Source: a phage
Reading direction: 5' to 3' (one strand)
DNA length: 64,000 nucleotides
Assembly (NCBI GenBank): GCA_014687725.1
Contig: GCA_014687725.1_4094.1
Positions within the stretch are counted from its first letter, which is position 1, and each line of letters opens with the position of its first letter. A model generated the notes under the pieces. It was not told where the DNA came from. It saw only the letters and a program-made list of their open reading frames with translations, and made no database searches. Both the position numbers and the translations under genes were made by a program. Positions 15,460-58,768 of the stretch are shown in pieces.

Positions 15460-15556
15460 GAAATAAAAGGGATTGGACTATGGCAAAATGCGTAGGGGGC
15501 TAAAGGGCGGGTAACCTTAGCGACTTCGATAAAGGGGTATTACGAATAAAATGTTA

Positions 15557-15585
15557 TTGACTTTTTATATGAATCGTATAAAATA
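15557..15585 (+). promoter_or_regulatory. promoter at head of paralog array
   Basis: TTGACT 15557-15562, ~16-nt spacer, TAAAAT -10; then SD AAGGGAG. Confidence 0.5.
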
Positions 15586-15614
15586 TGATTGATATTAATT
15601 TTAAGGGAGTCCCT

Positions 15615-15812
15615 ATGCGTATTTTAACTAAAGAACAGCACCACGAAAGACTTATCAATAACATGGCTATGATAATGTATAAGTCCCATGACCGTGGTAT
15701 TGCCTATAAGCGTGAATTAATTATGGCACTATTCATTGGAACTAACTTTCAGGAAAGGTATGTCAACGATTGGATTTGGTATTTAATTGAAGATATAACG
15801 AGTAAACTATGA
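15615..15812 (+). CDS. family A paralog (LGTNYQ-motif small protein)
   Basis: motif FIGTNFQER; ATG 15615 with SD AAGGGAG (track start 15585). Confidence 0.65.
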   Translation: MRILTKEQHHERLINNMAMIMYKSHDRGIAYKRELIMALFIGTNFQERYVNDWIWYLIEDITSKL

Positions 15813-16009
15813 AAATGCGTATTTTAAATAAAGAAGAATATCAATCACTGTTACGTAAAAACTTCACAAAGATTTATAATACAGACACACACGTAGAACG
15901 AATGGAGTTATACCTTTTGATTACATTGGGAACAAACTATCAGGGTAGATGGGTGTGGCAATATATGGATACATTGAAAAATAAAATATTGTCCACGAGG
16001 AAACAATGA
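15809..16009 (+). CDS. family A paralog
   Basis: motif LGTNYQGR; ATGA stop/start overlap. Confidence 0.65.
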   Translation: MKMRILNKEEYQSLLRKNFTKIYNTDTHVERMELYLLITLGTNYQGRWVWQYMDTLKNKILSTRKQ

Positions 16010-16215
16010 AAACTATAACACGAACCCAATCATACGGTCTTATCTTGAAATACATGGACTTAATGGTGGATATCAGCAAAGACCTGCCTAAAACTGAAAT
16101 TGAAGTTGCAAGAGCAGAGATCCGCATGTTGGCTGTACTGAACACAAACCATCAGGAAGATTATGTTGAAGAATGGATTCGATTTTTAATAGAAGATATT
16201 AAGAGTAAACTATGA
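16006..16215 (+). CDS. family A paralog
   Basis: motif LNTNHQED; ATGA overlap. Confidence 0.65.
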   Translation: MKTITRTQSYGLILKYMDLMVDISKDLPKTEIEVARAEIRMLAVLNTNHQEDYVEEWIRFLIEDIKSKL

Positions 16216-16427
16216 TTATTATAGAAAACTCATATCAATATACTAAACGCATCGCTGCCAGACAACTTGAAATCCTCATAATATACGAAGAGACTTCTGA
16301 TTTAAACTTAGCCGAGGTATTGGAAAATGAAATACTTTTGGGTGCATTCTTGGGAACAGACTATCAGGAGTATTATGAGGAAAAGTATTTGTCATCTCTA
16401 GAGAAATACATCAGGAGCAAATTATGA
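16212..16427 (+). CDS. family A paralog
   Basis: motif LGTDYQEY; ATGA overlap. Confidence 0.65.
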   Translation: MIIIENSYQYTKRIAARQLEILIIYEETSDLNLAEVLENEILLGAFLGTDYQEYYEEKYLSSLEKYIRSKL

Positions 16428-16636
16428 TTATATTAACACCAGAAGAATATAAGAAACGTTTCAATTCTGTCCAGACTGAAATATTACTTATATACCTTTC
16501 AAATGCAGACCTTAACTTATCAAGGGCAATGGAGAAGGATTTACTTATGGGTGCATTTTTGGATACAGACTTTCAGGAGTATTATGTAGGGAAATACTTA
16601 ATTGAACTTCAGAACTACATTAAGAGTAAACTATGA
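16424..16636 (+). CDS. family A paralog
   Basis: motif LDTDFQEY; ATGA overlap. Confidence 0.65.
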   Translation: MIILTPEEYKKRFNSVQTEILLIYLSNADLNLSRAMEKDLLMGAFLDTDFQEYYVGKYLIELQNYIKSKL

Positions 16637-16860
16637 AACATTTAAGTAATATTGAGAAGATGAGAATTATCATTGATGCATTAAACAAATACGATACCCT
16701 TTTACAAATAAAAGGTTTAACTCGATTGGAACACAAGATAAACACCACCGATGTACGCATGTTGGCTGTACTGGGGACGAACTTTCAGGAAGAGTATGTT
16801 GTTGCACACATAGTTGCACTCACTAATTACATAATGGACAAATGTAATGAACATCATTAA
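16633..16860 (+). CDS. family A paralog
   Basis: motif LGTNFQEE; ATGA overlap. Confidence 0.65.
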   Translation: MKHLSNIEKMRIIIDALNKYDTLLQIKGLTRLEHKINTTDVRMLAVLGTNFQEEYVVAHIVALTNYIMDKCNEHH

Positions 16861-17071
16861 TAACTTTGAATACGAGGCCCGTGCTAAGAGTGCCAGAAAA
16901 AAAGAGAACACCATTTACTTCACTATGATGTACTTACAATGGACTGAAATTGAAGAAAAGGTTGCTGAAGTATGGATGTTGGAATTCATGGGGACGCAGT
17001 ATCAGAATAGGTTTGCGGGTGAGTATATCAATGTTCTTATGAAACAAATAGAAAGAAAGGAAAAGAACTAA
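16847..17071 (+). CDS. family A paralog
   Basis: motif MGTQYQNR. Confidence 0.65.
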   Translation: MNIINNFEYEARAKSARKKENTIYFTMMYLQWTEIEEKVAEVWMLEFMGTQYQNRFAGEYINVLMKQIERKEKN

Positions 17072-17229
17072 TGGTTTTCATTAACATATCTGACCAACTC
17101 GATACTAAACTAGAAGTCGAGCAGAGTGAGGGATGGATGCTGTACTTTCTTGGAACTTCTCATCAGAATTTTTATATCCATGAACACATAGTTGCACTCA
17201 AGAATTACATTATGGACAAATGCAAATGA
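17071..17229 (+). CDS. family A paralog, N-terminally shortened copy (52 aa)
   Basis: motif LGTSHQNF; C-terminus HIVALKNYIMDKC repeats that of the 16633-16860 copy; TAATG overlap; below track cut-off. Confidence 0.4.
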   Translation: MVFINISDQLDTKLEVEQSEGWMLYFLGTSHQNFYIHEHIVALKNYIMDKCK

Positions 17230-17483
17230 AATACTTAACACAAGATGAATATTCACTTAGAATTCGAAAGCTCACCCCAGAAGCAAGAGTAATCTACGAT
17301 GACCCCACCCTTACATGGAACCAAATGCGAGCTAAAGTTAATGAGCTATGGTTGCTGTACTTTATGGGGACTCAATATCAAGATAAGTTTTGCAAAGAAT
17401 TTGTCGATCAATTAATGAATGTTATACAGGATAAACTAGATGAATATTGGCTCGCAAAACATGAAGACTTTATCAGGAGTTGA
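17220..17483 (+). CDS. family A paralog
   Basis: motif MGTQYQDK. Confidence 0.65.
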   Translation: MQMKYLTQDEYSLRIRKLTPEARVIYDDPTLTWNQMRAKVNELWLLYFMGTQYQDKFCKEFVDQLMNVIQDKLDEYWLAKHEDFIRS

Positions 17484-17712
17484 GTATCAAACTGCCCTCT
17501 TCTCTCTTATTAACACCCTTAGAAAAAACAATGCATTACATGGTGCACCTGAAGTGGATGTTATCAACGGTGATGTTTATCTTATGAAATTCATTGGAAC
17601 AAACTATCAAGATCTGTTCATTCAACGATACTTGGCAGCATTAAGAAACCAAATCCAATATAAAACCCGTCAAGCCCAAAGAGAATGGAAGAGACAATGC
17701 GACAAAGACTAA
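17461..17712 (+). CDS. family A paralog
   Basis: motif IGTNYQDL; start uncertain (track 17440). Confidence 0.6.
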   Translation: MKTLSGVEYQTALFSLINTLRKNNALHGAPEVDVINGDVYLMKFIGTNYQDLFIQRYLAALRNQIQYKTRQAQREWKRQCDKD

Positions 17713-17945
17713 ATCACAAAATGTATTGTAAACTATTACAAACACTGGCACAGAAACACTATGACACCGTATCTGAAATATTACCCTATGATATCATGCG
17801 TTTAATTCATAGTGAGGCCGAGATGCTTGTACTGATGAGAGGGACTGATAAAACAGCAATAGCCAGATCGATTGAGCAATATATTGATGCACACTGCCAA
17901 CACATGAGAACCGAAATCTGGAGGAAAGAGAATGATAATCCTTAA
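17685..17945 (+). CDS. family A paralog (divergent)
   Basis: motif region MRGTDKTA; tandem position. Confidence 0.55.
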   Translation: MEETMRQRLNHKMYCKLLQTLAQKHYDTVSEILPYDIMRLIHSEAEMLVLMRGTDKTAIARSIEQYIDAHCQHMRTEIWRKENDNP

Positions 17946-18147
17946 TGAGTATCAGTATCATTGGAGGTTACAAACTATCAAATCAAAAGTGTATAGTATT
18001 GTGTTAAACAAATCTATTGCACAAGAGGACAAATGTGTTATAATAGCTGAAATGAAGTTGGGTGTATTCGTAGGGACAAACTATCAAAACATCTACACTG
18101 ACGTATTATTAAGTTCCTTACGTAACAAGGTGGTATCCAAAATATGA
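17932..18147 (+). CDS. family A paralog
   Basis: motif VGTNYQNI. Confidence 0.65.
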   Translation: MIILNEYQYHWRLQTIKSKVYSIVLNKSIAQEDKCVIIAEMKLGVFVGTNYQNIYTDVLLSSLRNKVVSKI

Positions 18148-18362
18148 GAAATTTACAAGGCTTTGAATACATCAGACTCCTGAAAACATGTGGAAGCAGA
18201 AGGAGAATGATATCAAGCGATAAGAGCATCCAAGCTAACCTTAAGCACGCACTAGTAACTGAACTCTATGTAGGTGCACTCTTAGGCACAAACTATCAAC
18301 AAATGTATGTAGATCTATGGATTGACGCTCTACAGAAAGAGGTTAAAAGTAAATGCAAATGA
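18144..18362 (+). CDS. family A paralog
   Basis: motif LGTNYQQM; ATGA overlap. Confidence 0.65.
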   Translation: MRNLQGFEYIRLLKTCGSRRRMISSDKSIQANLKHALVTELYVGALLGTNYQQMYVDLWIDALQKEVKSKCK

Positions 18363-18571
18363 TTAATTTAAGTAAAGACGAATTTTATGTTATACTGGCG
18401 AAAACTTATCCAGCACGTAAGGCCGTTTATGATAGTCACATTATTGAACCCTCAAAGAAGTTGATTTTAGTAAATGAGATAAAGATGCTTTCAGTCTTAG
18501 GAACAAACTATCAAGAGAATGCTGTACTGATGTTAATTGATGCCCTCCAGCGAGAGGTTAAACGTAAATGA
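18353..18571 (+). CDS. family A paralog
   Basis: motif LGTNYQEN. Confidence 0.65.
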   Translation: MQMINLSKDEFYVILAKTYPARKAVYDSHIIEPSKKLILVNEIKMLSVLGTNYQENAVLMLIDALQREVKRK

Positions 18572-18798
18572 AAATGATTCATTTAACTTACCATGAATAT
18601 CAAAAACGTTTAAATGCATCCAGAGATATAAGGATTCAAATATTCAATAACAAAAGATTGAAGCCTGATATCAGAAAAATCAAAATTATAGAAGCAGAGT
18701 TATGCAACTTTCTAGGGACCAACTATCAGGCAGGTAAGGTAAAAAACTATCTTAGAGAACTAATGAATAGTATTGAAAATAAATGTAAGGGTAATTAA
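18568..18798 (+). CDS. family A paralog
   Basis: motif LGTNYQAG; ATGA overlap. Confidence 0.65.
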   Translation: MKMIHLTYHEYQKRLNASRDIRIQIFNNKRLKPDIRKIKIIEAELCNFLGTNYQAGKVKNYLRELMNSIENKCKGN

Positions 18799-18799
18799 C

Positions 18800-19039
18800 A
18801 TGAAAATGATTAAATTATCTCAAGCAAAATATAAAGAACGCCTGGTGAAAATTGCACCTGGACTTAATGAAATCCATCACGGAGAAGTCATTAAACACGG
18901 AAATAAGATGATTATGAAACTTGAGTTAAAGGTGGGTGCATTCATAGGAACAAACTATCAGGAGTATTATGTAGATGAATACATAATCGCACTTAAGAGA
19001 TACATTGGAAGAAAACTATATCTACAAACTAAAGAATAG
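18800..19039 (+). CDS. family A paralog
   Basis: motif IGTNYQEY; ATG 18800 right after upstream TAA (track TTG 18773). Confidence 0.6.
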   Translation: MKMIKLSQAKYKERLVKIAPGLNEIHHGEVIKHGNKMIMKLELKVGAFIGTNYQEYYVDEYIIALKRYIGRKLYLQTKE

Positions 19040-19068
19040 TATTGAAAATAAATGTGAGGTTGATGAAC

Positions 19069-19332
19069 ATGCAAATGATCAATTTAAGTAAAGATGAATA
19101 TACCGAGCGTATGACAAAAATTACGCACAAACGTAATACAATCTATCACAACCCAGAAATTCAACACAGTAAGAAAATGATTATGATGCGTGAGTTAAAG
19201 ATGGGTGTATTCTTAGGAACAAACTATCAAGATACAGAAGTAAATCGCTTAATCGCGGAGTTACTACTGGAAATCAGAGGTAAGCTGTACTTTCATCAAA
19301 TGACCCAACCACTGAGGTGTACTAAGAAATGA
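19069..19332 (+). CDS. family A paralog
   Basis: motif LGTNYQDT; start uncertain (track TTG 19042). Confidence 0.6.
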   Translation: MQMINLSKDEYTERMTKITHKRNTIYHNPEIQHSKKMIMMRELKMGVFLGTNYQDTEVNRLIAELLLEIRGKLYFHQMTQPLRCTKK

Positions 19333-19544
19333 TCAACATCACATTGCAAGAAAGATTCATCCGAATCAACTATGCAATTACCAAATTAGATGCTACTATA
19401 GGATTCCAAAGTCTACCATACAAAACCAGATTGTTATTAGAGTGTGAAGCTAAGTTGGGTGTACTGTTAGGGACGCAACACCAACAACGATATGTGGAAA
19501 TCTGGATTGACCTTTTAACCCAAAATATATATGAGAGAATGTAA
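19329..19544 (+). CDS. family A paralog
   Basis: motif LGTQHQQR; ATGA overlap. Confidence 0.65.
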   Translation: MINITLQERFIRINYAITKLDATIGFQSLPYKTRLLLECEAKLGVLLGTQHQQRYVEIWIDLLTQNIYERM

Positions 19545-19775
19545 ATGCAAAATGAAATGATATACTTAACGAATGAAGAATTTCAAGAGAAGATGTTAAA
19601 AACCAAAAACATTACTCTTAAGTTCGTTCCAAATCAATCAATATCTGAAGTATCTGCAAATGTATTGTTTCAGAAGCTACCATACGTTCTTGGAACTGAT
19701 AAACAAGAATTTATGGTTCAAAATATGATTGAACATCTTATAATGAGTATTAAGGAAAAAGTTAATGCAAAATGA
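19545..19775 (+). CDS. family A paralog (long-N variant)
   Basis: motif LGTDKQEF. Confidence 0.65.
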   Translation: MQNEMIYLTNEEFQEKMLKTKNITLKFVPNQSISEVSANVLFQKLPYVLGTDKQEFMVQNMIEHLIMSIKEKVNAK

Positions 19776-20019
19776 AATGATATACTTAACCTATAATGAA
19801 TACGTCGAGAGATTAGTTCGTGCCAAGAGATATACCAATAAACGTCCAATTGACCTAAACCAAACCCCAGCAGAAAGGAGTGCAGAAGTATTATTCCAAT
19901 CACTACCATATCTTCTGGGAACTGATAGACAAGAGGAATATGTTGCACGTATGATTAGATATCTTAAAATCACTATTAAGGAAAAAGTAAATGCAAATGA
20001 AATACTTAACAGACGATGA
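19765..20019 (+). CDS. family A paralog (long-N variant)
   Basis: motif LGTDRQEE; first 33 nt identical to the 19545 copy. Confidence 0.65.
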   Translation: MQNEMIYLTYNEYVERLVRAKRYTNKRPIDLNQTPAERSAEVLFQSLPYLLGTDRQEEYVARMIRYLKITIKEKVNANEILNRR

Positions 20020-20242
20020 GTTAAAAGAACGACTAATTAAATCAAGAAAACATACAAATCAACTTCCAAACGACACAAACAAGTCTCCAGCGGAAAGGAG
20101 TGCAGAAGTTTTATACATTCAACTCATGTACTTTCTTGGCACTGACAGACAAGAGTATTACATTGAAAGTATGCTTCGATATCTTAAATTCTCTATAAAG
20201 GAAAAGATACATGATCAAGTATTTAAAAATCCTAACAGTTAA
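19991..20242 (+). CDS. family A paralog (long-N variant)
   Basis: motif LGTDRQEY. Confidence 0.65.
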   Translation: MQMKYLTDDELKERLIKSRKHTNQLPNDTNKSPAERSAEVLYIQLMYFLGTDRQEYYIESMLRYLKFSIKEKIHDQVFKNPNS

Positions 20243-20453
20243 TGAATATCATAAGATTGTAATGAAAACTAATAGTGCTTACGCTAAAAAATCAAACCCA
20301 AAGTACATACTGGAACACACATTTGAAGAACGTCAATTAGCTTTAGTTGAAGCAAAACTTCTTGCACTATTAGGAACAAACTATCAGGAAGAATACAATA
20401 GAAAACTAATATACCTTTTAACTAAACATATAAGAAAAAGAAAAAATGCATGA
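20211..20453 (+). CDS. family A paralog
   Basis: motif LGTNYQEE. Confidence 0.65.
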   Translation: MIKYLKILTVNEYHKIVMKTNSAYAKKSNPKYILEHTFEERQLALVEAKLLALLGTNYQEEYNRKLIYLLTKHIRKRKNA

Positions 20454-20680
20454 AACACTTGACAGATGATGAACATGGGCTTATAGTAATGGATGTAATC
20501 AACATCGAATACAAAAAGTTGATACGCTATCGTTGTTATGAAGATAAGCAACTCGTTCTAGCAGAACAGAAGTTGTTTCGACTCTTAAACACAAACTACC
20601 AAGCACAATACGAAGAATCGTATATGTACCTTTTGGCGAGGAAAGCAAAAAGAGATTATGAAAATTTTAAGCAAAGGTGA
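20450..20680 (+). CDS. family A paralog
   Basis: motif LNTNYQAQ; ATGA overlap. Confidence 0.65.
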   Translation: MKHLTDDEHGLIVMDVINIEYKKLIRYRCYEDKQLVLAEQKLFRLLNTNYQAQYEESYMYLLARKAKRDYENFKQR

Positions 20681-20879
20681 TTCAGTAATATTACTTATAG
20701 AGAGTTCAAGTAAATTCTTAAACATAACACTGTCTGATATAGATGAAGATGACAAAGAAGTACTGAGAGCAGATTTAAGAGTACTGTTACATATCGGAAC
20801 AAACCTACAAGAAGAATATGTAGAGTGCTACATCAATGAACTTAAAGAATCAGTACTGAGAAAATGCAAATGCAAATGA
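20658..20879 (+). CDS. family A paralog
   Basis: motif IGTNLQEE. Confidence 0.65.
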   Translation: MKILSKGDSVILLIESSSKFLNITLSDIDEDDKEVLRADLRVLLHIGTNLQEEYVECYINELKESVLRKCKCK

Positions 20880-21097
20880 AAATCATTACCGATGTAGAAT
20901 ACCTAACAATCATAAATGGACTGTTTTTGAAGCTCTTCGTCATTAACACATCAGATATACCAGATATGGATAAAATTATTAAGAGAAATGAAGTCTATGT
21001 TCTAGCTACCCTTGGAACGAACTATCAAGAACACGACATTAAAGATTATATTAATACACTTAAACGAGCTATTGAACTAAAATGCCAAAACCACTAG
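20864..21097 (+). CDS. family A paralog
   Basis: motif LGTNYQEH. Confidence 0.65.
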   Translation: MQMQMKIITDVEYLTIINGLFLKLFVINTSDIPDMDKIIKRNEVYVLATLGTNYQEHDIKDYINTLKRAIELKCQNH

Positions 21098-21297
21098 GAA
21101 CAGCAGAATACATTGAACTCATGGGATTACACTTCTCATCCTTTCAGAAACTTATGCGAGAATCAAAGAATGATTTAGAATATACCATCAGAGGTTCCGA
21201 TTTAAGAATGCTTCTCACCCTAGACACAGATTCCCAAGAGCGATTTGTCAATGAGCATATTAGAGCACTTTTAATGGAAATTAAAAGTAAACTATGA
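21082..21297 (+). CDS. family A paralog
   Basis: motif LDTDSQER. Confidence 0.65.
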   Translation: MPKPLGTAEYIELMGLHFSSFQKLMRESKNDLEYTIRGSDLRMLLTLDTDSQERFVNEHIRALLMEIKSKL

Positions 21298-21509
21298 AGA
21301 TAATATCAAACCAAGAGTACTTGGCACTATTCAGGAAGAATAATCACAAATATATGGCACTTGATTCAAGAACTGATATAAGTGAACTTGAAAAAAATCT
21401 TTTGCGTTCAGATATGATAGTACTGACACTCTTAGGAACACAGCATCAAGAGAGAACTGTTAATTCATACATAGGTATTCTTATACAGATAGTACAGGAA
21501 AAGATATGA
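21294..21509 (+). CDS. family A paralog
   Basis: motif LGTQHQER; ATGA overlap. Confidence 0.65.
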   Translation: MKIISNQEYLALFRKNNHKYMALDSRTDISELEKNLLRSDMIVLTLLGTQHQERTVNSYIGILIQIVQEKI

Positions 21510-21727
21510 GAATCATAACACAACAAGATATTCTTAAGTTCACAAGGGTTCATGCATCTGAATTTGATGCTATATTATCAAAAAGTTACAATGACCCTTA
21601 TACACAAGATGTACATTACAGTGAATTATGGATGTATATACTTTTAGGTACAAATAAGCAAGAGCAAGCCGTACAGAAGTATTTGACAGCTTTACGTGAT
21701 GCTACTGCTAATGGAGTATGTGTTTAA
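21506..21727 (+). CDS. family A paralog
   Basis: motif LGTNKQEQ; ATGA overlap. Confidence 0.65.
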   Translation: MRIITQQDILKFTRVHASEFDAILSKSYNDPYTQDVHYSELWMYILLGTNKQEQAVQKYLTALRDATANGVCV

Positions 21728-21728
21728 T

Positions 21729-21971
21729 ATGAAAGTACTGACAGAACTAGAAATGTATCATAGATTTAATAAGTACTATCATTTACTTAAGCCTATACAG
21801 AGGATTAAATGTCCATTTGAAGAGAAACAGGTTTTAATCTATGAGCACAAGTTCTTTGTATCATTAGGTACAGATCAACAAGAGTACTATTTGACGTTGT
21901 ACTTGATTACATTAATAGATTTAATTCACTATAAAACCAAACAAGCTAATAAAGAGAAATATGAAAACTAA
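21729..21971 (+). CDS. family A paralog
   Basis: motif LGTDQQEY; ATG 21729 just after upstream TAA (track 21696). Confidence 0.6.
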   Translation: MKVLTELEMYHRFNKYYHLLKPIQRIKCPFEEKQVLIYEHKFFVSLGTDQQEYYLTLYLITLIDLIHYKTKQANKEKYEN

Positions 21972-22305
21972 TATACAACTCAAGGTATATAAATCATTTG
22001 AACATACATATATCAAAAGTAGTCTATGTAGAGATGTAATGGATTACAAGGGTAAGCCATTCACAATTACCTATGATTCTTATGTTAGTGATTTATATAT
22101 ATCATTTGTTAATTACGAAAATAAAATATACAAGCACGTTGATATTAAAGATTTAAGTACTTTATCACCAGAGGAATACTTTCAGGAATCATTAGTATGG
22201 GATTTAGAGTTTCCTATGCCATTAGTACATAAGATGATAGTACTAATGAAAGAATCTAAACAGGAGCCTAATGGTGATTATGAAGAACACACAGTTGAGT
22301 ATTAA
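21961..22305 (+). CDS. family B paralog (EEYFQ-motif protein)
   Basis: motif LSPEEYFQESLVWD. Confidence 0.65.
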   Translation: MKTNIQLKVYKSFEHTYIKSSLCRDVMDYKGKPFTITYDSYVSDLYISFVNYENKIYKHVDIKDLSTLSPEEYFQESLVWDLEFPMPLVHKMIVLMKESKQEPNGDYEEHTVEY

Positions 22306-53849: not shown

Positions 53850-53878
53850 GACAAATGATAAGTTAATGATATAATATA

Positions 53879-53912
53879 AGGTGACAACATAATATGTTGG
53901 TCACCTTTTTTA
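53879..53912 (+). terminator. rho-independent terminator
   Basis: 12-bp stem AGGTGACAACAT/ATGTTGGTCACCT + T6. Confidence 0.8.
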
Positions 53913-53913
53913 A

Positions 53914-54527
53914 TCCTGAAAGGTTCCCATAAGGAAATGATTAAAAGCCTAATCCACTCGAAAATGTAGAGGGTAGATGAGTAGTCCTTTCAGTACGAAC
54001 AGCAGATGAAACCCGTTAGATGATGGCATAGTTTGAACCACTCACGGCAATGCGGCTGTATAAAGAACTCCAATAGGATAAAGAGAGTTCCTCGATAGAC
54101 ATATAAGGATCGCACCTTACCAATTATCTAAGGGAGATTTCATAAGAAATATGCGGTCGGAATTATACAATATAGTTGCGTCCAAATTTTGTGAAATCAA
54201 ATACAAGTACTGGTCATATGGTATTTGTATTATGTGTCGGGATGTTTAAGACCGACGACCGTTGCTACAAGAACCGCGATAGAGAGAAACAGAGCAACCC
54301 GCTTTCGTCTCGTAAGAGAATTCGTGATATGAACTATGTGAAGGCCACCAGCGTCAAATTTTTTTGTTCTTTCCCCTGCGGGGGGGATGAAATATGCTCA
54401 AGCAAACCCCGTCAATATTAATTAAAAGAAAATAGTACTTGTAGAATTAGACATGCGTAGCATGATAATTCTACTGATGTTGATGCAATCAACGTCACGT
54501 ATATTCATTGATGTTTCCATAGGAATA
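53914..54527. other. ORF-poor, GC-richer intergenic region (candidate structured RNA / origin-type element)
   Basis: ~600 bp with no convincing ORF on either strand; multiple short hairpins; G7 tract 54380-54386; minus-strand Chi 54345-54352. Confidence 0.4.
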
Positions 54528-55073
54528 ATGATGGCATTTATTAGAAAAGAAAAAACTGTTACTTATAAAACTTTGAATTTTGATGATTGCATTAATCAAT
54601 CACAAGACGAAGATATCTTTACTGGATATGTGGTTATTAAAGAAAAAGGATGCATTTCTTATATAAAGGAATTACAAAATGGAATTGAAGTGACTTCAGT
54701 TAAATTACTTCCTACTCAAAAACCAACAATATCAAAAGCCCAGTATGGTAATTATTTTGAAGAAAGATATAGTAATAATTCAATAAGTGTTAAGGCTCAT
54801 ATTATTAAAGGAGAACTAGAAGGAGAATATAGAAAATACAACCCACAAGGAAAATGTGTTTGGGTTAAATACTTCAATTCAGGATATGATGTAACATCTG
54901 AAATTATAGAATTCTTGGGTTTAAAATGTACCCCTGAGACTATTCATGATTACAAGTTCAATACTGAAGAAGAGTTTAATCTGATGATGCGTTACGGTTC
55001 ACATTTTAAATTTTTATATGAATATAACATTGACAGTAGTACTTTTGATAAGATAGTACACAACTGTCTCTAA
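54528..55073 (+). CDS. hypothetical protein (181 aa)
   Basis: ATG 54528 with SD AGGAA (track start 54453 upstream); repeated G-x-Y/W-x-Y-N-x-G-like units, weakly MORN-like. Confidence 0.6.
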   Translation: MMAFIRKEKTVTYKTLNFDDCINQSQDEDIFTGYVVIKEKGCISYIKELQNGIEVTSVKLLPTQKPTISKAQYGNYFEERYSNNSISVKAHIIKGELEGEYRKYNPQGKCVWVKYFNSGYDVTSEIIEFLGLKCTPETIHDYKFNTEEEFNLMMRYGSHFKFLYEYNIDSSTFDKIVHNCL

Positions 55074-55089
55074 CAAAAGGAATTATATA

Positions 55090-55611
55090 ATGTCGAAGAA
55101 GGATGCTTCGAAAAAACATTCAGTACATTTCAGTACTGGAAAGGACAACTGGACAACTCCCAAAGATTTCTTTGAAGATTTGGATGAGTTATGGGGATTT
55201 ACACTTGATGCTGCTTGTGTTGATGAGACTGCATTGTGTGATAACTATTTTACACCTGATGATAATTCTCTTGAACAAGACTGGGGAAAAAATATTGTTT
55301 GGTTAAATCCCCCATATAGTGATTTAAAAACTTGGTTAGCCAAGGCAGTAGATGCGTATAATAAAGGTGCTACAGTACTGATTCTAGTACCATCCAGGAC
55401 TGATACAATAGCATTTCAGGAATATGCAGCCAAAATATGTGATTGTATTTGTTTTATCAAAGGTAGATTACGTTTTGGTATTCCAGAAGAACCTGATAAG
55501 AAAACAGATTCAGCACCATTTCCTTCGTGTCTTATAGTCCTTGATAAGTACCTCACTACTGCTAAAATTAATTATCTTAAATCTCTCGGATTGGTGATGA
55601 AGAATCTATGA
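55090..55611 (+). CDS. DNA N6-adenine methyltransferase (phage Dam-type, NPPY family)
   Basis: WTTPKDFF, LNPPYS, VPSRTDT, GRLRFG blocks; SD AAAGGA. Confidence 0.85.
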   Translation: MSKKDASKKHSVHFSTGKDNWTTPKDFFEDLDELWGFTLDAACVDETALCDNYFTPDDNSLEQDWGKNIVWLNPPYSDLKTWLAKAVDAYNKGATVLILVPSRTDTIAFQEYAAKICDCICFIKGRLRFGIPEEPDKKTDSAPFPSCLIVLDKYLTTAKINYLKSLGLVMKNL

Positions 55612-56141
55612 AAGAAACATGTGTATTAACGTTTGGTCGTATTAATCCTGTACATCGTGGACATGGTTTAGTTTTTGAAAAGGCCAAAACATTACAAGAA
55701 CAGTACAATGCTGATTTAAAAATATATCTAAGCACCAGTACTGACAATATAAAAAACCCACTCCCACCTGAACTAAAAATGTATTATACAGAGGGATTCT
55801 ATCCTTCAGTGCAAGAGAACATCTACACAGAAGACAATCTATTTGATATAATGAGAGAACTGGATGGAAAGTACTTAGATGTTCTTTTCATTTGTGGTTC
55901 TGACCGTATTGATTCTTTTCAAAAAACTCTTGACATGTACAATGGTAAGTTGTATAATTTTTGTAGTATAAAAGCAATTCAGGCAGGTATTGACCGTAAT
56001 GTAAGTCAATATAGCTCAACACAAATGCGTAACTTCGCAAAAAATGAAGATTTTGATAGTTTTCGTGAGTTTTTACCTGGAAATGACGAGGACTTAAAAA
56101 TACAATTATTTGAAGACGTTATAAAATACATGAGGAAATAA
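55608..56141 (+). CDS. HxGH-motif nucleotidyltransferase (cytidylyl/adenylyltransferase superfamily, NMN adenylyltransferase-like)
   Basis: N-terminal TFGRINPVHRGH = (T/H)xGH signature; ATGA overlap with methyltransferase gene. Confidence 0.7.
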   Translation: MKETCVLTFGRINPVHRGHGLVFEKAKTLQEQYNADLKIYLSTSTDNIKNPLPPELKMYYTEGFYPSVQENIYTEDNLFDIMRELDGKYLDVLFICGSDRIDSFQKTLDMYNGKLYNFCSIKAIQAGIDRNVSQYSSTQMRNFAKNEDFDSFREFLPGNDEDLKIQLFEDVIKYMRK

Positions 56142-56143
56142 TT

Positions 56144-56437
56144 ATGTCAGTACTGTTCAAAACCAATCCAGTACTTTGGGTTCAAAATGAGCAATCAGGA
56201 TTTCGTTCCATCCATGTTGAATACAAAGGTAATACTGTAGTTGCAATTATTGCTAACAAAACTCTAGGAAACTGGACTGCACAGGTTGTTCCTATGGGAT
56301 ATTCTTACACATCTGATGAGGTACAATTCCTGGCTGAACTATATCGCCAAGTGCCGTTTATCATTAATGTACTAGAAGGTAATGATACATTATCACATGC
56401 AGATGTGATTAATTTTCTTGGAAACTTGCATGTGTGA
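56144..56437 (+). CDS. hypothetical protein (97 aa)
   Basis: ATG with SD GAGGAA. Confidence 0.65.
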   Translation: MSVLFKTNPVLWVQNEQSGFRSIHVEYKGNTVVAIIANKTLGNWTAQVVPMGYSYTSDEVQFLAELYRQVPFIINVLEGNDTLSHADVINFLGNLHV

Positions 56438-56717
56438 TGAAATAAATCTTACAGGATATTTTTTACAAGAATCAATGATTAAATTTAGTGAAAAATTTTC
56501 AGTACTGGATGGTATCGAAATGTGGCATGTCAAACCACTGTTCCACACTTTCAGTAAAGAGCACAAAATGTTATTGACTGAAGCGAGTAAATCAAATAAC
56601 ATATGTGAAATCAAAATTGGTGTAAATGTCTATAAAGGGATGGTTATCTTTTTTGACAATAACAGCAACTACTTTTATATTGTTAAGGAGCATTACGTTG
56701 ACAAATACAAATACTAA
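56430..56717 (+). CDS. hypothetical protein (95 aa)
   Basis: ATG 56430 (track TTG 56418). Confidence 0.55.
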   Translation: MCDEINLTGYFLQESMIKFSEKFSVLDGIEMWHVKPLFHTFSKEHKMLLTEASKSNNICEIKIGVNVYKGMVIFFDNNSNYFYIVKEHYVDKYKY

Positions 56718-57312
56718 TACATACTTCCGTTATCTTCGCTTAGGTCTTTCCCTACGTCCGATCCGTGGAAAGTGCGATTCACTCGCTGACCTTGACTATG
56801 CATATGCATTACATCATGAAGGTGTACAGTATGTATTGGGTGATTATGGTGAATTTGAAGAAACAAATGACAGTACTGGAATTAATGCTGGTGTAGAAAA
56901 TCTTAACAACATTGCTAACAGTTCTCGCCATGACATTGTGTTACAGATTCAAAACTTTATTGAGCAGCACACAGGTAAACGTGTTTGGTGCTATGTCGGC
57001 ACTGATGCACAAATGTCAATTTCATTCGGTAACGATGAAGGATATGTTGCACAGCTTATTATGGATTTTGAATCTGAAGAGAAGTTTTTAGAATTCAAAG
57101 AAAAGATTATTCAGTCACTTGTTGATATGGGTATCCCCGAAGATAAAATGCCAGAAGTTCAAAACATTGATGAATTTGTTTTGATTCCATCTGATGAGAA
57201 ATATGATGCAATGTTTACTGCTCTTAATATTCCAGGAGTTATTGTGGAGTACTTTGATGATGGTGATGATAGTATCTATATCGATCTAGATGACGATGAC
57301 GACGATGAATAA
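56698..57312 (+). CDS. hypothetical protein with poly-Asp C-terminus (204 aa)
   Basis: TTG 56698 with SD AAGGAG 7 nt upstream (track ATG 56626 would overlap upstream gene by 90 nt); tail DLDDDDDDE. Confidence 0.55.
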   Translation: MTNTNTNTYFRYLRLGLSLRPIRGKCDSLADLDYAYALHHEGVQYVLGDYGEFEETNDSTGINAGVENLNNIANSSRHDIVLQIQNFIEQHTGKRVWCYVGTDAQMSISFGNDEGYVAQLIMDFESEEKFLEFKEKIIQSLVDMGIPEDKMPEVQNIDEFVLIPSDEKYDAMFTALNIPGVIVEYFDDGDDSIYIDLDDDDDDE

Positions 57313-57318
57313 TGTACA

Positions 57319-57347
57319 TAGCCCGACATAAGTTCGGGCTATTTTTG
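57319..57347 (+). terminator. rho-independent terminator
   Basis: stem TAGCCCGA/TCGGGCTA + T5. Confidence 0.8.
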
Positions 57348-57358
57348 TAAGGGGATAT

Positions 57359-57634
57359 ATGAATTATAAAGTTCTACAATATACATACAGTGTTTTGTTT
57401 GATTTACATCACAATGGAAGATATCTCAATACAATACGAGAAAACACATTCACTCATACTATCTGGATTAATCACTTAATAATGATACGTGAATATTTTG
57501 TTAATAGTGAGATAATCATTCGTGGTAAAAAACAGAAGATAGAACAAGTTAATAGTTTTGGTGGTAAATTAGTGCTATCATTTATAGATAGTAATACTAA
57601 TGAAAGATATAGTATAGATTTGGTGGACATATGA
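57359..57634 (+). CDS. family C paralog
   Basis: N-terminus MNYKVLQYTYSVLFDL; SD GGGGA. Confidence 0.65.
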   Translation: MNYKVLQYTYSVLFDLHHNGRYLNTIRENTFTHTIWINHLIMIREYFVNSEIIIRGKKQKIEQVNSFGGKLVLSFIDSNTNERYSIDLVDI

Positions 57635-57897
57635 ATTATAAAGATTTCCTACTAACATACAAGATTATTCAAGATTTAGCACACGACAATGATAGCCCTA
57701 GTCTAGAAGACACATGCACTGAAATGATTCATACGATTCGTGGTAAGATTAAAAAAAAATTCAGTACTGTTATTATTGGTGATGACCATGCAGAATTTTC
57801 TGATATAATCATTAGACGTGATGGTAAAGTTGAGGTTCAGTACTACACTGATTTTGGATTTACCAGTATTCCGTTGGAGATATTCCCTTGGGATTAA
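57631..57897 (+). CDS. family C paralog
   Basis: N-terminus MNYKDFLLTYKIIQDL; ATGA overlap. Confidence 0.65.
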   Translation: MNYKDFLLTYKIIQDLAHDNDSPSLEDTCTEMIHTIRGKIKKKFSTVIIGDDHAEFSDIIIRRDGKVEVQYYTDFGFTSIPLEIFPWD

Positions 57898-58199
57898 ATT
57901 TAAATGATATACAATTCACTTATAAGATCCTATATGATTTGTATGATGTATACCTTGTTAGTAACAACATAGGTTCACATAACCGATCCAAAGAACAACC
58001 ATTTATTGATTTATATATTGAGTACTTAGATTCAGTAGGTGAATATATAAAAAAGAATTACAGTACTTTTATCGATGGAAATGATAAATTCGATTTCTAT
58101 GGTGTGCAATCATATAATGGTATAATCCATGTTCAATTTCAGGAAATAACCGATAGGGGATTTATCGAGATTAAAGTTGTGAAGTTGGTGAATTTATAA
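57888..58199 (+). CDS. family C paralog
   Basis: LNDIQFTYKILYDLYD; TTG start with SD GGAGA, no in-frame ATG nearby. Confidence 0.5.
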   Translation: MGLNLNDIQFTYKILYDLYDVYLVSNNIGSHNRSKEQPFIDLYIEYLDSVGEYIKKNYSTFIDGNDKFDFYGVQSYNGIIHVQFQEITDRGFIEIKVVKLVNL

Positions 58200-58209
58200 G
58201 AGGTTACAT

Positions 58210-58521
58210 ATGTTATTAAATGATATACAATTCACATACAAATTTTTGTATATCCAATACGCTACGGTTGATGCTGGAGAATATCTCTACAGTGAAATCT
58301 ATCGTTCGGTATGGATAAAGTTTTTGGATGAATTACATGAATATTACCATGATTTGTGTATAGTTCGTGATAATAAAATATACAAATTCCGCGATATTGT
58401 TAGTCATAGCGGTAAGCTACGATTGGAATTAAGTACTGATAGTGATGTTGATTGGATTGGTGTAAATTTACTGGAGTTGGAGAATGAAAAACAACTTAAA
58501 GGAAATACAAGTATTTTATAA
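58210..58521 (+). CDS. family C paralog
   Basis: MLLNDIQFTYKFLYIQY; SD AAGAGG. Confidence 0.65.
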   Translation: MLLNDIQFTYKFLYIQYATVDAGEYLYSEIYRSVWIKFLDELHEYYHDLCIVRDNKIYKFRDIVSHSGKLRLELSTDSDVDWIGVNLLELENEKQLKGNTSIL

Positions 58522-58768
58522 ATTCTTATACTTATCATATGTAAAAGATGAGTACTATGAAAGTGTGTATTATTTTTTATGGCAACATTACCGTACTATA
58601 GTAAGAGATTTATATATAGGAAAATCTATCATATACAATGGTGAAAAATGTATATGTACTGATGTCGTTAGTTTTAATGGTTCTTTAACACTGTGTTTCA
58701 GATGCGATAATAATAGTGGGTCATTTTCATTAAACGTATATCAGTTAGAAGGAATAAATTTTGAATAA
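58484..58768 (+). CDS. family C paralog
   Basis: LKEIQVFYKFLYLSY; 38-nt overlap with upstream gene. Confidence 0.55.
   Translation: MKNNLKEIQVFYKFLYLSYVKDEYYESVYYFLWQHYRTIVRDLYIGKSIIYNGEKCICTDVVSFNGSLTLCFRCDNNSGSFSLNVYQLEGINFE

Follow-up and report, generated by a model that had tools for sequence, protein, structure and literature searches.

Overlapping genes for a putative orphan Dam-family methyltransferase and a candidate virus-specific HxGH nucleotidyltransferase in an Asteriusvirus jumbo coliphage

In our study, two overlapping phage genes were found which are best explained, with a probability of about 0.6, as independent and co-transcribed genes. The first (ORF1) would encode an orphan Dam methyltransferase and the second (ORF2) a virus-specific HxGH nucleotidyltransferase that transfers adenylyl groups and is not the NMN adenylyltransferase (NMNAT) of a pathway based on nicotinamide phosphoribosyltransferase (NAMPT). 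The two genes would be neighbours through clade-specific synteny. They lie in a stretch of 64,000 nucleotides, called the window here, which is DNA of a jumbo coliphage from the genus Asteriusvirus (121Q/PBECO4/slurp01 group), a phage of E. coli with a genome of ~350 kb. The 3-kb stretch around the pair showed 94-98% DNA identity to 33 complete Asteriusvirus jumbo-phage genomes, including those of 121Q, PBECO4, phAPEC6, G17, Sharanji, and slurp01, and 36 phage records contained conserved orthologues of the pair, with DNA identities of 94-98%. The ORF2 protein was 100% identical to its counterparts in slurp01 and 121Q, and ORF1 was 94.8% identical to its slurp01 counterpart. More than 30 GenBank records (121Q, PBECO4, and phAPEC6 among them) label the pair as 'DNA methyltransferase' and 'cytidyltransferase', and ORF2 is misnamed 'ribonucleotide reductase A' in some records. 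The pair is thus not new and is unremarkable, and neither experiment nor computation backs the name 'cytidyltransferase'.

Both open reading frames, their quoted motifs, and the ATGA overlap were present as the original prediction had claimed when the coordinates were read again (Table 1). ORF1 contained the motifs WLNPPYSD, LVPSRTDT, and KGRLRFG and was preceded by a Shine-Dalgarno-like AAGGA sequence 9 nucleotides upstream, whereas the N-terminus of ORF2 was MKETCVLTFGRINPVHRGHG. Profile searches, which had been proposed for both proteins, placed ORF1 in the Dam family (PF05869) and ORF2 in PHROG 3041/395. Since both have Pfam or PHROG matches and conserved orthologues, they are real genes and not chance open reading frames.

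Table 1. Features of the gene pair and its surroundings in the window
Feature	Position	Strand	Remarks
ORF1, Dam-family (PF05869) N6-adenine methyltransferase (predicted)	55090..55611	+	173 aa, ATG start
ORF2, stand-alone HxGH (HIGH-type) nucleotidyltransferase (predicted)	55608..56141	+	177 aa, PHROG 3041/395
ATGA, overlap of ORF1 stop and ORF2 start	55608..55611	+	read directly
Gene upstream of ORF1, phrog_16210, family with no assigned function	54453..55073	+	same probable transcription unit
Three genes downstream of ORF2: phrog_14956, 38105, 15575	56144..57312	+	before terminator
Intrinsic-terminator-like hairpin	57318..57342	+	9-bp stem, 5 G-C pairs, T run

The probable six-gene unit starts after an intergenic gap of 600 nucleotides and is probably ended by the strong terminator-like hairpin. 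The two genes are very probably co-transcribed, as they lie on the same strand with no terminator between them. Thus, the co-expression that had been read from the overlap is likely, whereas a functional link does not follow from it: the ATGA junction was shared by 30 of the 155 adjacent plus-strand pairs (19%) in a simple chain of open reading frames across the window, where overlaps of any kind were found in 83 of the 155. In the curated annotation of 121Q, overlaps of 4 nucleotides were present in 13 of 73 neighbouring pairs. ATGA is the default junction in this genome and the overlap is therefore uninformative on a functional link; co-transcription of the pair likewise says nothing about a shared function. 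The four other genes of the unit belonged only to PHROGs with no function assigned and had no Pfam family in the Pfam and PHROG scans, and the same scans of six neighbouring genes gave only families with no assigned function, so the context gives no clue. Rfam (gathering threshold) and ARAGORN gave no match in the window. As originally posed, the pair matters little, given its annotation in over 30 Asteriusvirus genomes and the routine nature of the overlap.

The call of a Dam-type N6-adenine methyltransferase was borne out. ORF1 matched the Pfam Dam profile PF05869 with 110.9 bits (cut-off 28.1; E 6.6e-32), its residues 16-156 aligning to positions 7-149 of the 169 in the profile, and PHROG 111, 'DNA methyltransferase', with an E-value of 3.3e-56. 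The catalytic (D/N)PPY motif was present as WLNPPYSD at residues 71-78. Like the phage Dam family PF05869/TIGR01712 (Stx phage VT2-Sakai, T1-like and lambdoid dam), which it matches near full length, ORF1 contained an N-terminal W.TP...F..LD(A)A block of the SAM site followed by NPPY, is ~170 aa long, and is encoded by its phage as an orphan. Unlike the equivalogs of that family, it scored 92.7 bits on NCBIfam TIGR01712 (phage_N6A_met), below the equivalog cut-off of 97.05 bits, so that membership holds at the family level and not at the equivalog level. By tblastn, 2,165 phage records were found to contain relatives of ORF1, among them the dam genes of VT2-Sakai and of lambdoid phages; phmmer gave no match among PDB sequences, and no cognate nuclease was seen beside the gene. 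Judged from its sequence, ORF1 is an ordinary orphan phage Dam-family adenine methylase. As its family suggests, it most likely methylates phage DNA and would in this way blunt host restriction.

The characterised members of the Dam family target GATC. In the genome, GATC had an observed/expected ratio of 0.50 and was the second most depleted tetranucleotide; as it is two-fold under-represented, GATC specificity is not to be assumed for ORF1. An attempt to derive this specificity from NGATCN hexamers was dropped, because their pattern (GGATCC 0 and CGATCG 1, depleted; TGATCA 62 and AGATCT 61, kept) did not match the Dam sensitivity of the cognate enzymes.

Other oligonucleotides were also unevenly represented in this phage group. 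GCGC was found 0 times in the ~350-kb genome against ~156 expected; it was also absent from the loci of GAP32, RCIP0023, and 7t3 that were examined, and was present in Wroclawvirus. About 20 GC-rich hexamer palindromes were absent from the genome or occurred in 0-2 copies. The depleted sites included those of NcoI, PstI, KpnI, BamHI, SphI, SalI, SacI, XhoI, NheI, StuI, MscI, BsiWI, and PvuII, and normal levels were found for CACGTG, GTGCAC, ACGCGT, GAATTC, and GATATC. The hexamer AGTACT occurred 233 times in the window (17 expected, ~13-fold excess) and 897 times genome-wide (100 expected, ~9-fold excess). It preferred the form CAGTACTG, was present in all three reading frames, and was enriched outside open reading frames. 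The AGTACT excess was found in all four enterobacterial genera and not in Wroclawvirus. No publication on the absence of GCGC or the excess of AGTACT in jumbo phages was found in the literature. Whether AGTACT or GTAC may be a site of action of a phage methylase, ORF1 included, is a testable question.

The order of the methylase gene followed by the nucleotidyltransferase gene was found in four jumbo-phage genera, with an overlap of 4 nucleotides in 121Q and RCIP0023, an overlap of 8 nucleotides in 7t3, and a gap of 3 nucleotides in GAP32, where the identity of the nucleotidyltransferase was only 39%. Such a conserved order might suggest that the two enzymes act jointly on DNA, the second providing the activated moiety of a hypermodified adenine or acting as a regulator of the methylase. 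We consider this very improbable, because the whole neighbourhood is collinear in the four phages and the order is explained by descent: the orthologue of the gene upstream of ORF1 occupied the same position in each, and an RNA ligase and a polynucleotide kinase were found 5-9 kb downstream of the pair. Moreover, the nucleotidyltransferase of Wroclawvirus PAC2 had no methylase neighbour, and a Dam homologue was found within 4 kb in none of the 80 IMG/VR metagenomic viral loci carrying an ORF2 homologue, where the commonest neighbour was a DnaB-like helicase (31 loci). Joint action is also disfavoured by the unequal spread of the two genes (Dam genes in 2,165 phage records vs 566 for the nucleotidyltransferase) and by the Pfam scans of 81 multidomain relatives, among which no fusion of both domains was seen. 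From the collinearity, the adjacency is taken to be inherited, lineage-specific synteny and not a functional module.

The call of an HxGH nucleotidyltransferase fold for ORF2 was likewise sound. The (H/T)xGH motif was present as H16-R-G-H19 and the C-terminal SxTxxR motif as S136-S-T-Q-M-R141; H19, S136, and R141 were invariant among 41 diverse relatives, and the protein was found to have the Rossmann-like alpha/beta fold of class-I-aaRS-like nucleotidyltransferases. ORF2 matched PHROG 3041 (E 8.5e-58) and PHROG 395 (E 1e-24), both named 'cytidyltransferase', over its full length. Its match to Pfam CTP_transf_like (PF01467) had 17.3 bits (E 0.0059), below the gathering score of 21 bits, so that the case for its place in the superfamily is made by the fold and the motifs; among 71 longer relatives, 31 passed this profile at E<1e-4. 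Models of NaMNAT, FAD synthetase, and 'cyt_tran_rel' aligned only over the first 20-40 residues and scored 14-20 bits against cut-offs of 28-396. The NMN/NaMN models, such as TIGR00482 (19.8 vs 112.45 bits) and NF000840 (15.3 vs 150 bits), also stayed below their cut-offs and aligned over the same short N-terminal stretch.

The family of ORF2 was found to be large. A word-indexed protein search gave only close Asteriusvirus-like relatives. The family emerged only with exhaustive HMMER, for which a profile built from close relatives gave 3,416 cluster representatives at E<=1e-3 and 2,244 at E<=1e-10. The 566 GenBank phage records with a member included 375 of Synechococcus phage, 61 of 'Cyanophage', 24 of Prochlorococcus phage, and 33 of Escherichia, and members were also present in RaK2-like, PA5oct-like, and other large myoviruses. 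ORF2 was single-copy in the 121Q genome plus the window (local tblastn). The back-translated pattern FGRxNPPTxGH, which covers that motif variant only, was scanned over 185,579 prokaryotic species with one genome each. It gave 53 matches. Membership in the family was confirmed for 51 of them, each located on a MAG or bin contig; no true match fell in an isolate genome, and the sole match in a finished chromosome was a false positive. The family appears virus-specific as far as sampled.

ORF2 is predicted to be the minimal, single-domain form of the cyanophage 'cytitidyltransferase' family (PHROG 3041/395). It was 28-37% identical to the members in Syn9 (gp184), S-PM2, P-SSM2, and P-HM2, with a TM score of 0.88-0.92 over the domain. 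Most of these cyanophage members are fusions of 360-1,270 aa, whereas ORF2 is the bare domain; in the 80 IMG/VR loci the homologous reading frames were typically 360-1,130 aa. Pfam scans of 81 long relatives showed DUF5824 as a recurrent domain and, occasionally, a Zeta_toxin/AAA_33 kinase, DUF6267, a Pol-beta nucleotidyltransferase, ParB_N, Hint, and RimK ATP-grasp with a Zn-protease, next to much unannotated sequence. The BFVD matches to ORF2 were all uncharacterised, being unnamed or 'cytidyltransferase-like' viral proteins. A 362-aa homologue of ORF2 was detected in purified virions of cyanophage S-SZBM1, and its function was said to remain unclear (PMC9146016). No biochemical study of the family and no discussion of ORF2 in the jumbo-phage literature were found.

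Among PDB sequences, phmmer gave no match to ORF2, and the family profile was nearly equidistant from MJ0951 (7e-5), phosphopantetheine adenylyltransferase (PPAT; 1e-4), NMNAT (5.5e-4), and NaMNAT (9e-4). Pairwise sequence search found no link between ORF2 and the NadM-type or archaeal NMNATs (PDB 2QJT, 2QJO, 1F9A, 1EJ2). However, hhalign of the family profile against GAP32_112, a NadM-Nudix protein which itself matches solved NadM structures at 9e-21 and 3e-16, gave a probability of 88% (E 2.9e-6). It paired GRxNPxHxGH with GRFQMAHAGH, S.S.D..KNPL...K with GSSELARDPKNPFTFEER, and YSSTQMR with INSTEMR. The ATP-site motifs were thus intact and NadM-like in ORF2 (GRxNPxHxGH, KNPL...K, GSD, SSTxMR), and for this reason ORF2 most likely binds ATP and moves AMP onto a phosphate-bearing acceptor, which would release pyrophosphate. 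In NadM, the D[YW]xY....W block includes the residues that sandwich nicotinamide. This block (after beta-3) and the YYLxxFPxW block (after beta-4) were conserved in 2qjo, 2qjt, and GAP32_112, whereas counterparts of both were absent from the alignments of the ORF2 family. ORF2 itself reads TEDNLFDIMREL and GSDRIDSFQKTLDMYNGKLYNF in the region of the NadM blocks, with no conserved Trp, and this region is variable across the family. The beta-3 region of the family is variable, and its beta-4 region contains a near-invariant GSDR...YNG..YNF signature of its own, with GSDR, YNG, and YNF as blocks that NadM does not share. We read these features as a conserved, NadM-like ATP half-site and an acceptor half-site that differs from that of NadM-type NMNATs.

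The original prediction had also raised a phage NAD+ salvage module that might counteract NAD-depleting host defences, and had proposed a search for a NAMPT partner in the rest of the genome. For the phage NAD+ reconstitution pathways NARP1 (ADP-ribose recycling by Adps and Namat), NARP2 (NAMPT and NMNAT), and NARP3, definitions are given in 10.1101/2024.02.11.579819 and PMC13464706. In GAP32, the module consists of GAP32_112 (NadM-Nudix) and GAP32_114 (NAMPT), followed by Sir2 and Nudix genes, and lies 22 kb downstream of the GAP32_068/069 methylase-nucleotidyltransferase pair. The sister genera were alike, with a NAMPT and NadM-Nudix module ~22-25 kb from the pair in GAP32, RCIP0023, and 7t3. 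By tblastn with the GAP32 proteins, orthologues were found in CBB, Serratia BF, Yersinia fHe-Yen9-04, Salmonella 7t3/Munch, Escherichia EJP2, and Klebsiella RaK2/K64-1/RCIP0023; Asteriusvirus was absent from these matches, although matches down to 35% identity were listed. No partner was detected in the whole 121Q genome plus the window by local tblastn (best E 0.087 for NAMPT and 5.9 for NadM-Nudix), whereas Sir2, the positive control in the same search, gave 2.4e-65. The 121Q annotation, taken for all of the genome but ~140-178 kb (a stretch which the window covers at the sequence level), held no NAMPT, NadR, or PnuC product, NadR and PnuC being sought by annotation name only. At the syntenic site of the module, 121Q was found to contain protease genes, followed by Sir2 and Nudix.

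With neither NAMPT nor a canonical NMNAT detectable in the whole Asteriusvirus genome, the salvage-module reading is not supported, and the anti-defence idea, for want of a NAMPT in this phage, fails the test proposed with it. An NMNAT on its own would in any case be unable to restore NAD+ from ADPR and nicotinamide. The ORF2-type enzyme and a canonical NadM-Nudix occur together in GAP32, RCIP0023/RaK2, 7t3, Serratia BF, and DLP_6, and, among Synechococcus phage records, fewer than 55 had NAMPT vs 375 with the ORF2-type enzyme. Unlike GAP32_112, the NadM-Nudix arm of the phage NARP2 module, ORF2 has no Nudix domain and does not adjoin NAMPT. We conclude that ORF2 does not serve as the NMNAT in an NAD+ salvage or reconstitution module built on NAMPT, since Asteriusvirus has no such module, the sister genera carry the module plus an ORF2-type enzyme, and hundreds of cyanophages carry that enzyme with no NAMPT.

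NMN as the acceptor is a minority reading that keeps some probability, because the folds closest to ORF2 appear to be those of NMNATs. ORF2 would then be a divergent NMN/NaMN adenylyltransferase that boosts NAD+ from host-derived NMN, for example NMN freed by NAD-dependent DNA ligase during replication, and a phage NAMPT would not be required. We hold this to be unlikely. It is improbable that ORF2 activates a carboxylate by adenylation and attaches it to a tRNA, a protein, or a prosthetic group during infection, by a mechanism like that of TmcAL or citrate-lyase ligase (CitC): the match to MJ0951 is confined to the SxTxxR helix, which is generic, the folds of NMNAT and PPAT rank above those of TmcAL and CitC, and ORF2 has no tRNA-binding or extra domain. 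The database name, the weak Pfam CTP_transf_like match, and the analogy repeated for S-SZBM1 (PMC9146016) point to a true cytidylyltransferase of the glycerol-3-phosphate cytidylyltransferase type, for which a polyol, sugar, or choline phosphate would be the substrate to be activated for envelope or glycan modification; we regard this as quite improbable. PPAT (CoaD) differs from ORF2, with which it shares only 11-18% identity, in its (T/S)FDPxTxGH motif with Asp where ORF2 has GRxNP, and no CoA-pathway context was found around ORF2.

Returning to the adenylyl-transferring enzyme that we prefer, we tentatively suggest, at somewhat less than an even chance, that the 'cytitidyltransferase' family is a virus-specific adenylyltransferase with an acceptor other than NMN. 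Candidates for this acceptor are a different 5'-phosphorylated nucleotide or metabolite and the 5'-phosphate end of a nucleic acid. Such acceptors would fit the fusions seen in some relatives, in which the partner domain is a polynucleotide-kinase-like Zeta/AAA_33 kinase or a Pol-beta nucleotidyltransferase.

Asteriusvirus, which has lost the NAMPT and NadM-Nudix genes that were kept in its sister genera, offers a natural point of comparison in studies of NAD-depleting defences. The stand-alone ORF2 of 177 aa, from a culturable coliphage, is a convenient protein for finding the substrate of the family. If the suggested activity is true, the product made by the family would act in replication or host takeover in a way specific to phages, and a function would be assigned to a widespread gene of T4-like cyanophages.

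The hexamer AGTACT was found in large excess. From dinucleotides, 17 copies would be expected in the window and 233 occur; in the ~350-kb genome of the Asteriusvirus phage 121Q, the expectation is 100 and the count 897. The preferred flanks were CAGTACTG. All three reading frames were used by the copies in the window (77/41/57), and 58 of the 233 were located outside the + strand ORFs, where the non-ORF part made up 13% of the sequence. The window bins of 16-20 kb and 24-28 kb contained no copy. A similar excess was present in jumbo phages of the sister genera: 48 copies against 3.6 expected and 111 against 9 in GAP32, 32 against 2.5 in RCIP0023, and 16 against 1.7 in 7t3. It was absent from the Wroclawvirus PAC2 (2 observed, 2.9 expected). 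The motif could be the binding site of a phage DNA-binding protein, or the target of a methylase. No paper on AGTACT over-representation was found in the literature.

The GCGC tetranucleotide was completely missing from the window (38.6 expected) and from the 121Q genome (~156 expected), and its count was also zero in the compared loci of GAP32, RCIP0023, and 7t3; in PAC2 it was present, with 11 copies against 5.9 expected. In addition, about 20 GC-rich 6-bp palindromes were missing or almost missing from the window and the 121Q genome. CCATGG, CTGCAG, GGTACC, GGATCC, GCATGC, TGGCCA, GTCGAC, AGGCCT, TCCGGA, GAGCTC, GCTAGC, CGTACG, and CTCGAG had no copies, CAGCTG and CGATCG had one each, and ACCGGT had two. 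CACGTG, GTGCAC, ACGCGT, GAATTC, and GATATC were found at normal levels. The pattern is an extreme and selective avoidance of sites that is common to genera with different hosts. The avoidance may also be a consequence of a nuclease that the phage encodes and that leaves its own DNA uncut.

Among the tetranucleotides, GATC was the second most depleted (124 copies in the window against 239 expected; genome-wide observed/expected ratio of 0.50 in 121Q). This depletion coexists with a phage-encoded Dam-family methylase. In the window and the 121Q genome, the ratios of CCGG and CATG were 0.57 and 0.67, respectively, and GTAC was enriched (1.41).

Two arrays of small ORFs were found in the window (see table). 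The ORFs of the first were densely packed and many were joined by 4-nt overlaps; the array contained neither tRNA genes nor tandem repeats, and no ORF of at least 150 aa was present at 14.5-24.4 kb. Its 16-20 kb part was also devoid of the otherwise ubiquitous AGTACT. The second array was located immediately downstream of the terminator-like hairpin that probably ends the Dam-NTase unit, the probable transcription unit that carries the methylase gene and ORF2, the HxGH nucleotidyltransferase gene. At least three of its ORFs were clearly paralogous, sharing the start (L)NDIQFTYK(I/F)LY, and their neighbours resembled them more weakly. The two ORFs scanned matched only PHROGs of unknown function.

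A non-coding stretch of ~200 nt upstream of this unit showed 85% identity to a second copy in 121Q and had no match in Rfam. This repeated element is possibly a promoter or regulatory region. A perfect sigma-70 consensus was located upstream of the three small genes 3' of ORF2; promoter-like sites in the region were not significantly enriched (26 against 19 +/- 3.5 expected).

Positions of the arrays, non-coding elements and PHROG-matching segment
Feature	Location	Position	Strand	Description
Small-ORF array	window	~15500-22000	+	~30 head-to-tail ORFs, 65-90 aa each
Small-ORF series	window	57359-58768	+	ORFs of ~90-100 aa
Repeat copy 1	window	53940-54140		within 600-nt intergenic gap 53850-54452
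Repeat copy 2	121Q	326,676-326,875		intergenic, flanked by genes 594 (endonuclease VII) and 595
Sigma-70 consensus	window	55930-55958	+	TTGACA, 17 nt, TATAAT (12/12); inside ORF2
phrog_4808-matching segment	L005 protein (fused relative of ORF2)	residues 303-360		PHROG match

Homologues of ORF2 were wrongly labelled 'ribonucleotide reductase A / NrdB' in the public records KM507819 (121Q gene 418), MK773491 (7t3_0248), and KF156339 (S-MbCM25). Fused cyanophage members have a C-terminal extension with a ~60-aa segment that matched phrog_4808 ('ribonucleotide reductase alpha subunit') and is the likely source of this label; ORF2 itself was devoid of the segment.

Outside the window, Asteriusvirus was found to lack the NARP2-type module of NAMPT and NadM-Nudix (121Q 218-221 kb compared with GAP32 58.5-61.8 kb). 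The syntenic place holds this module in GAP32, CBB, 7t3, EJP2, RaK2, K64-1, and RCIP0023, whereas in Asteriusvirus it is occupied by ClpP/HslV-like protease genes. The adjoining Sir2 and Nudix genes were retained in Asteriusvirus, and a macro-domain protein is encoded elsewhere in the genome. Asteriusvirus and its sister genera offer a natural loss-or-gain contrast for work on NAD-depleting defences.
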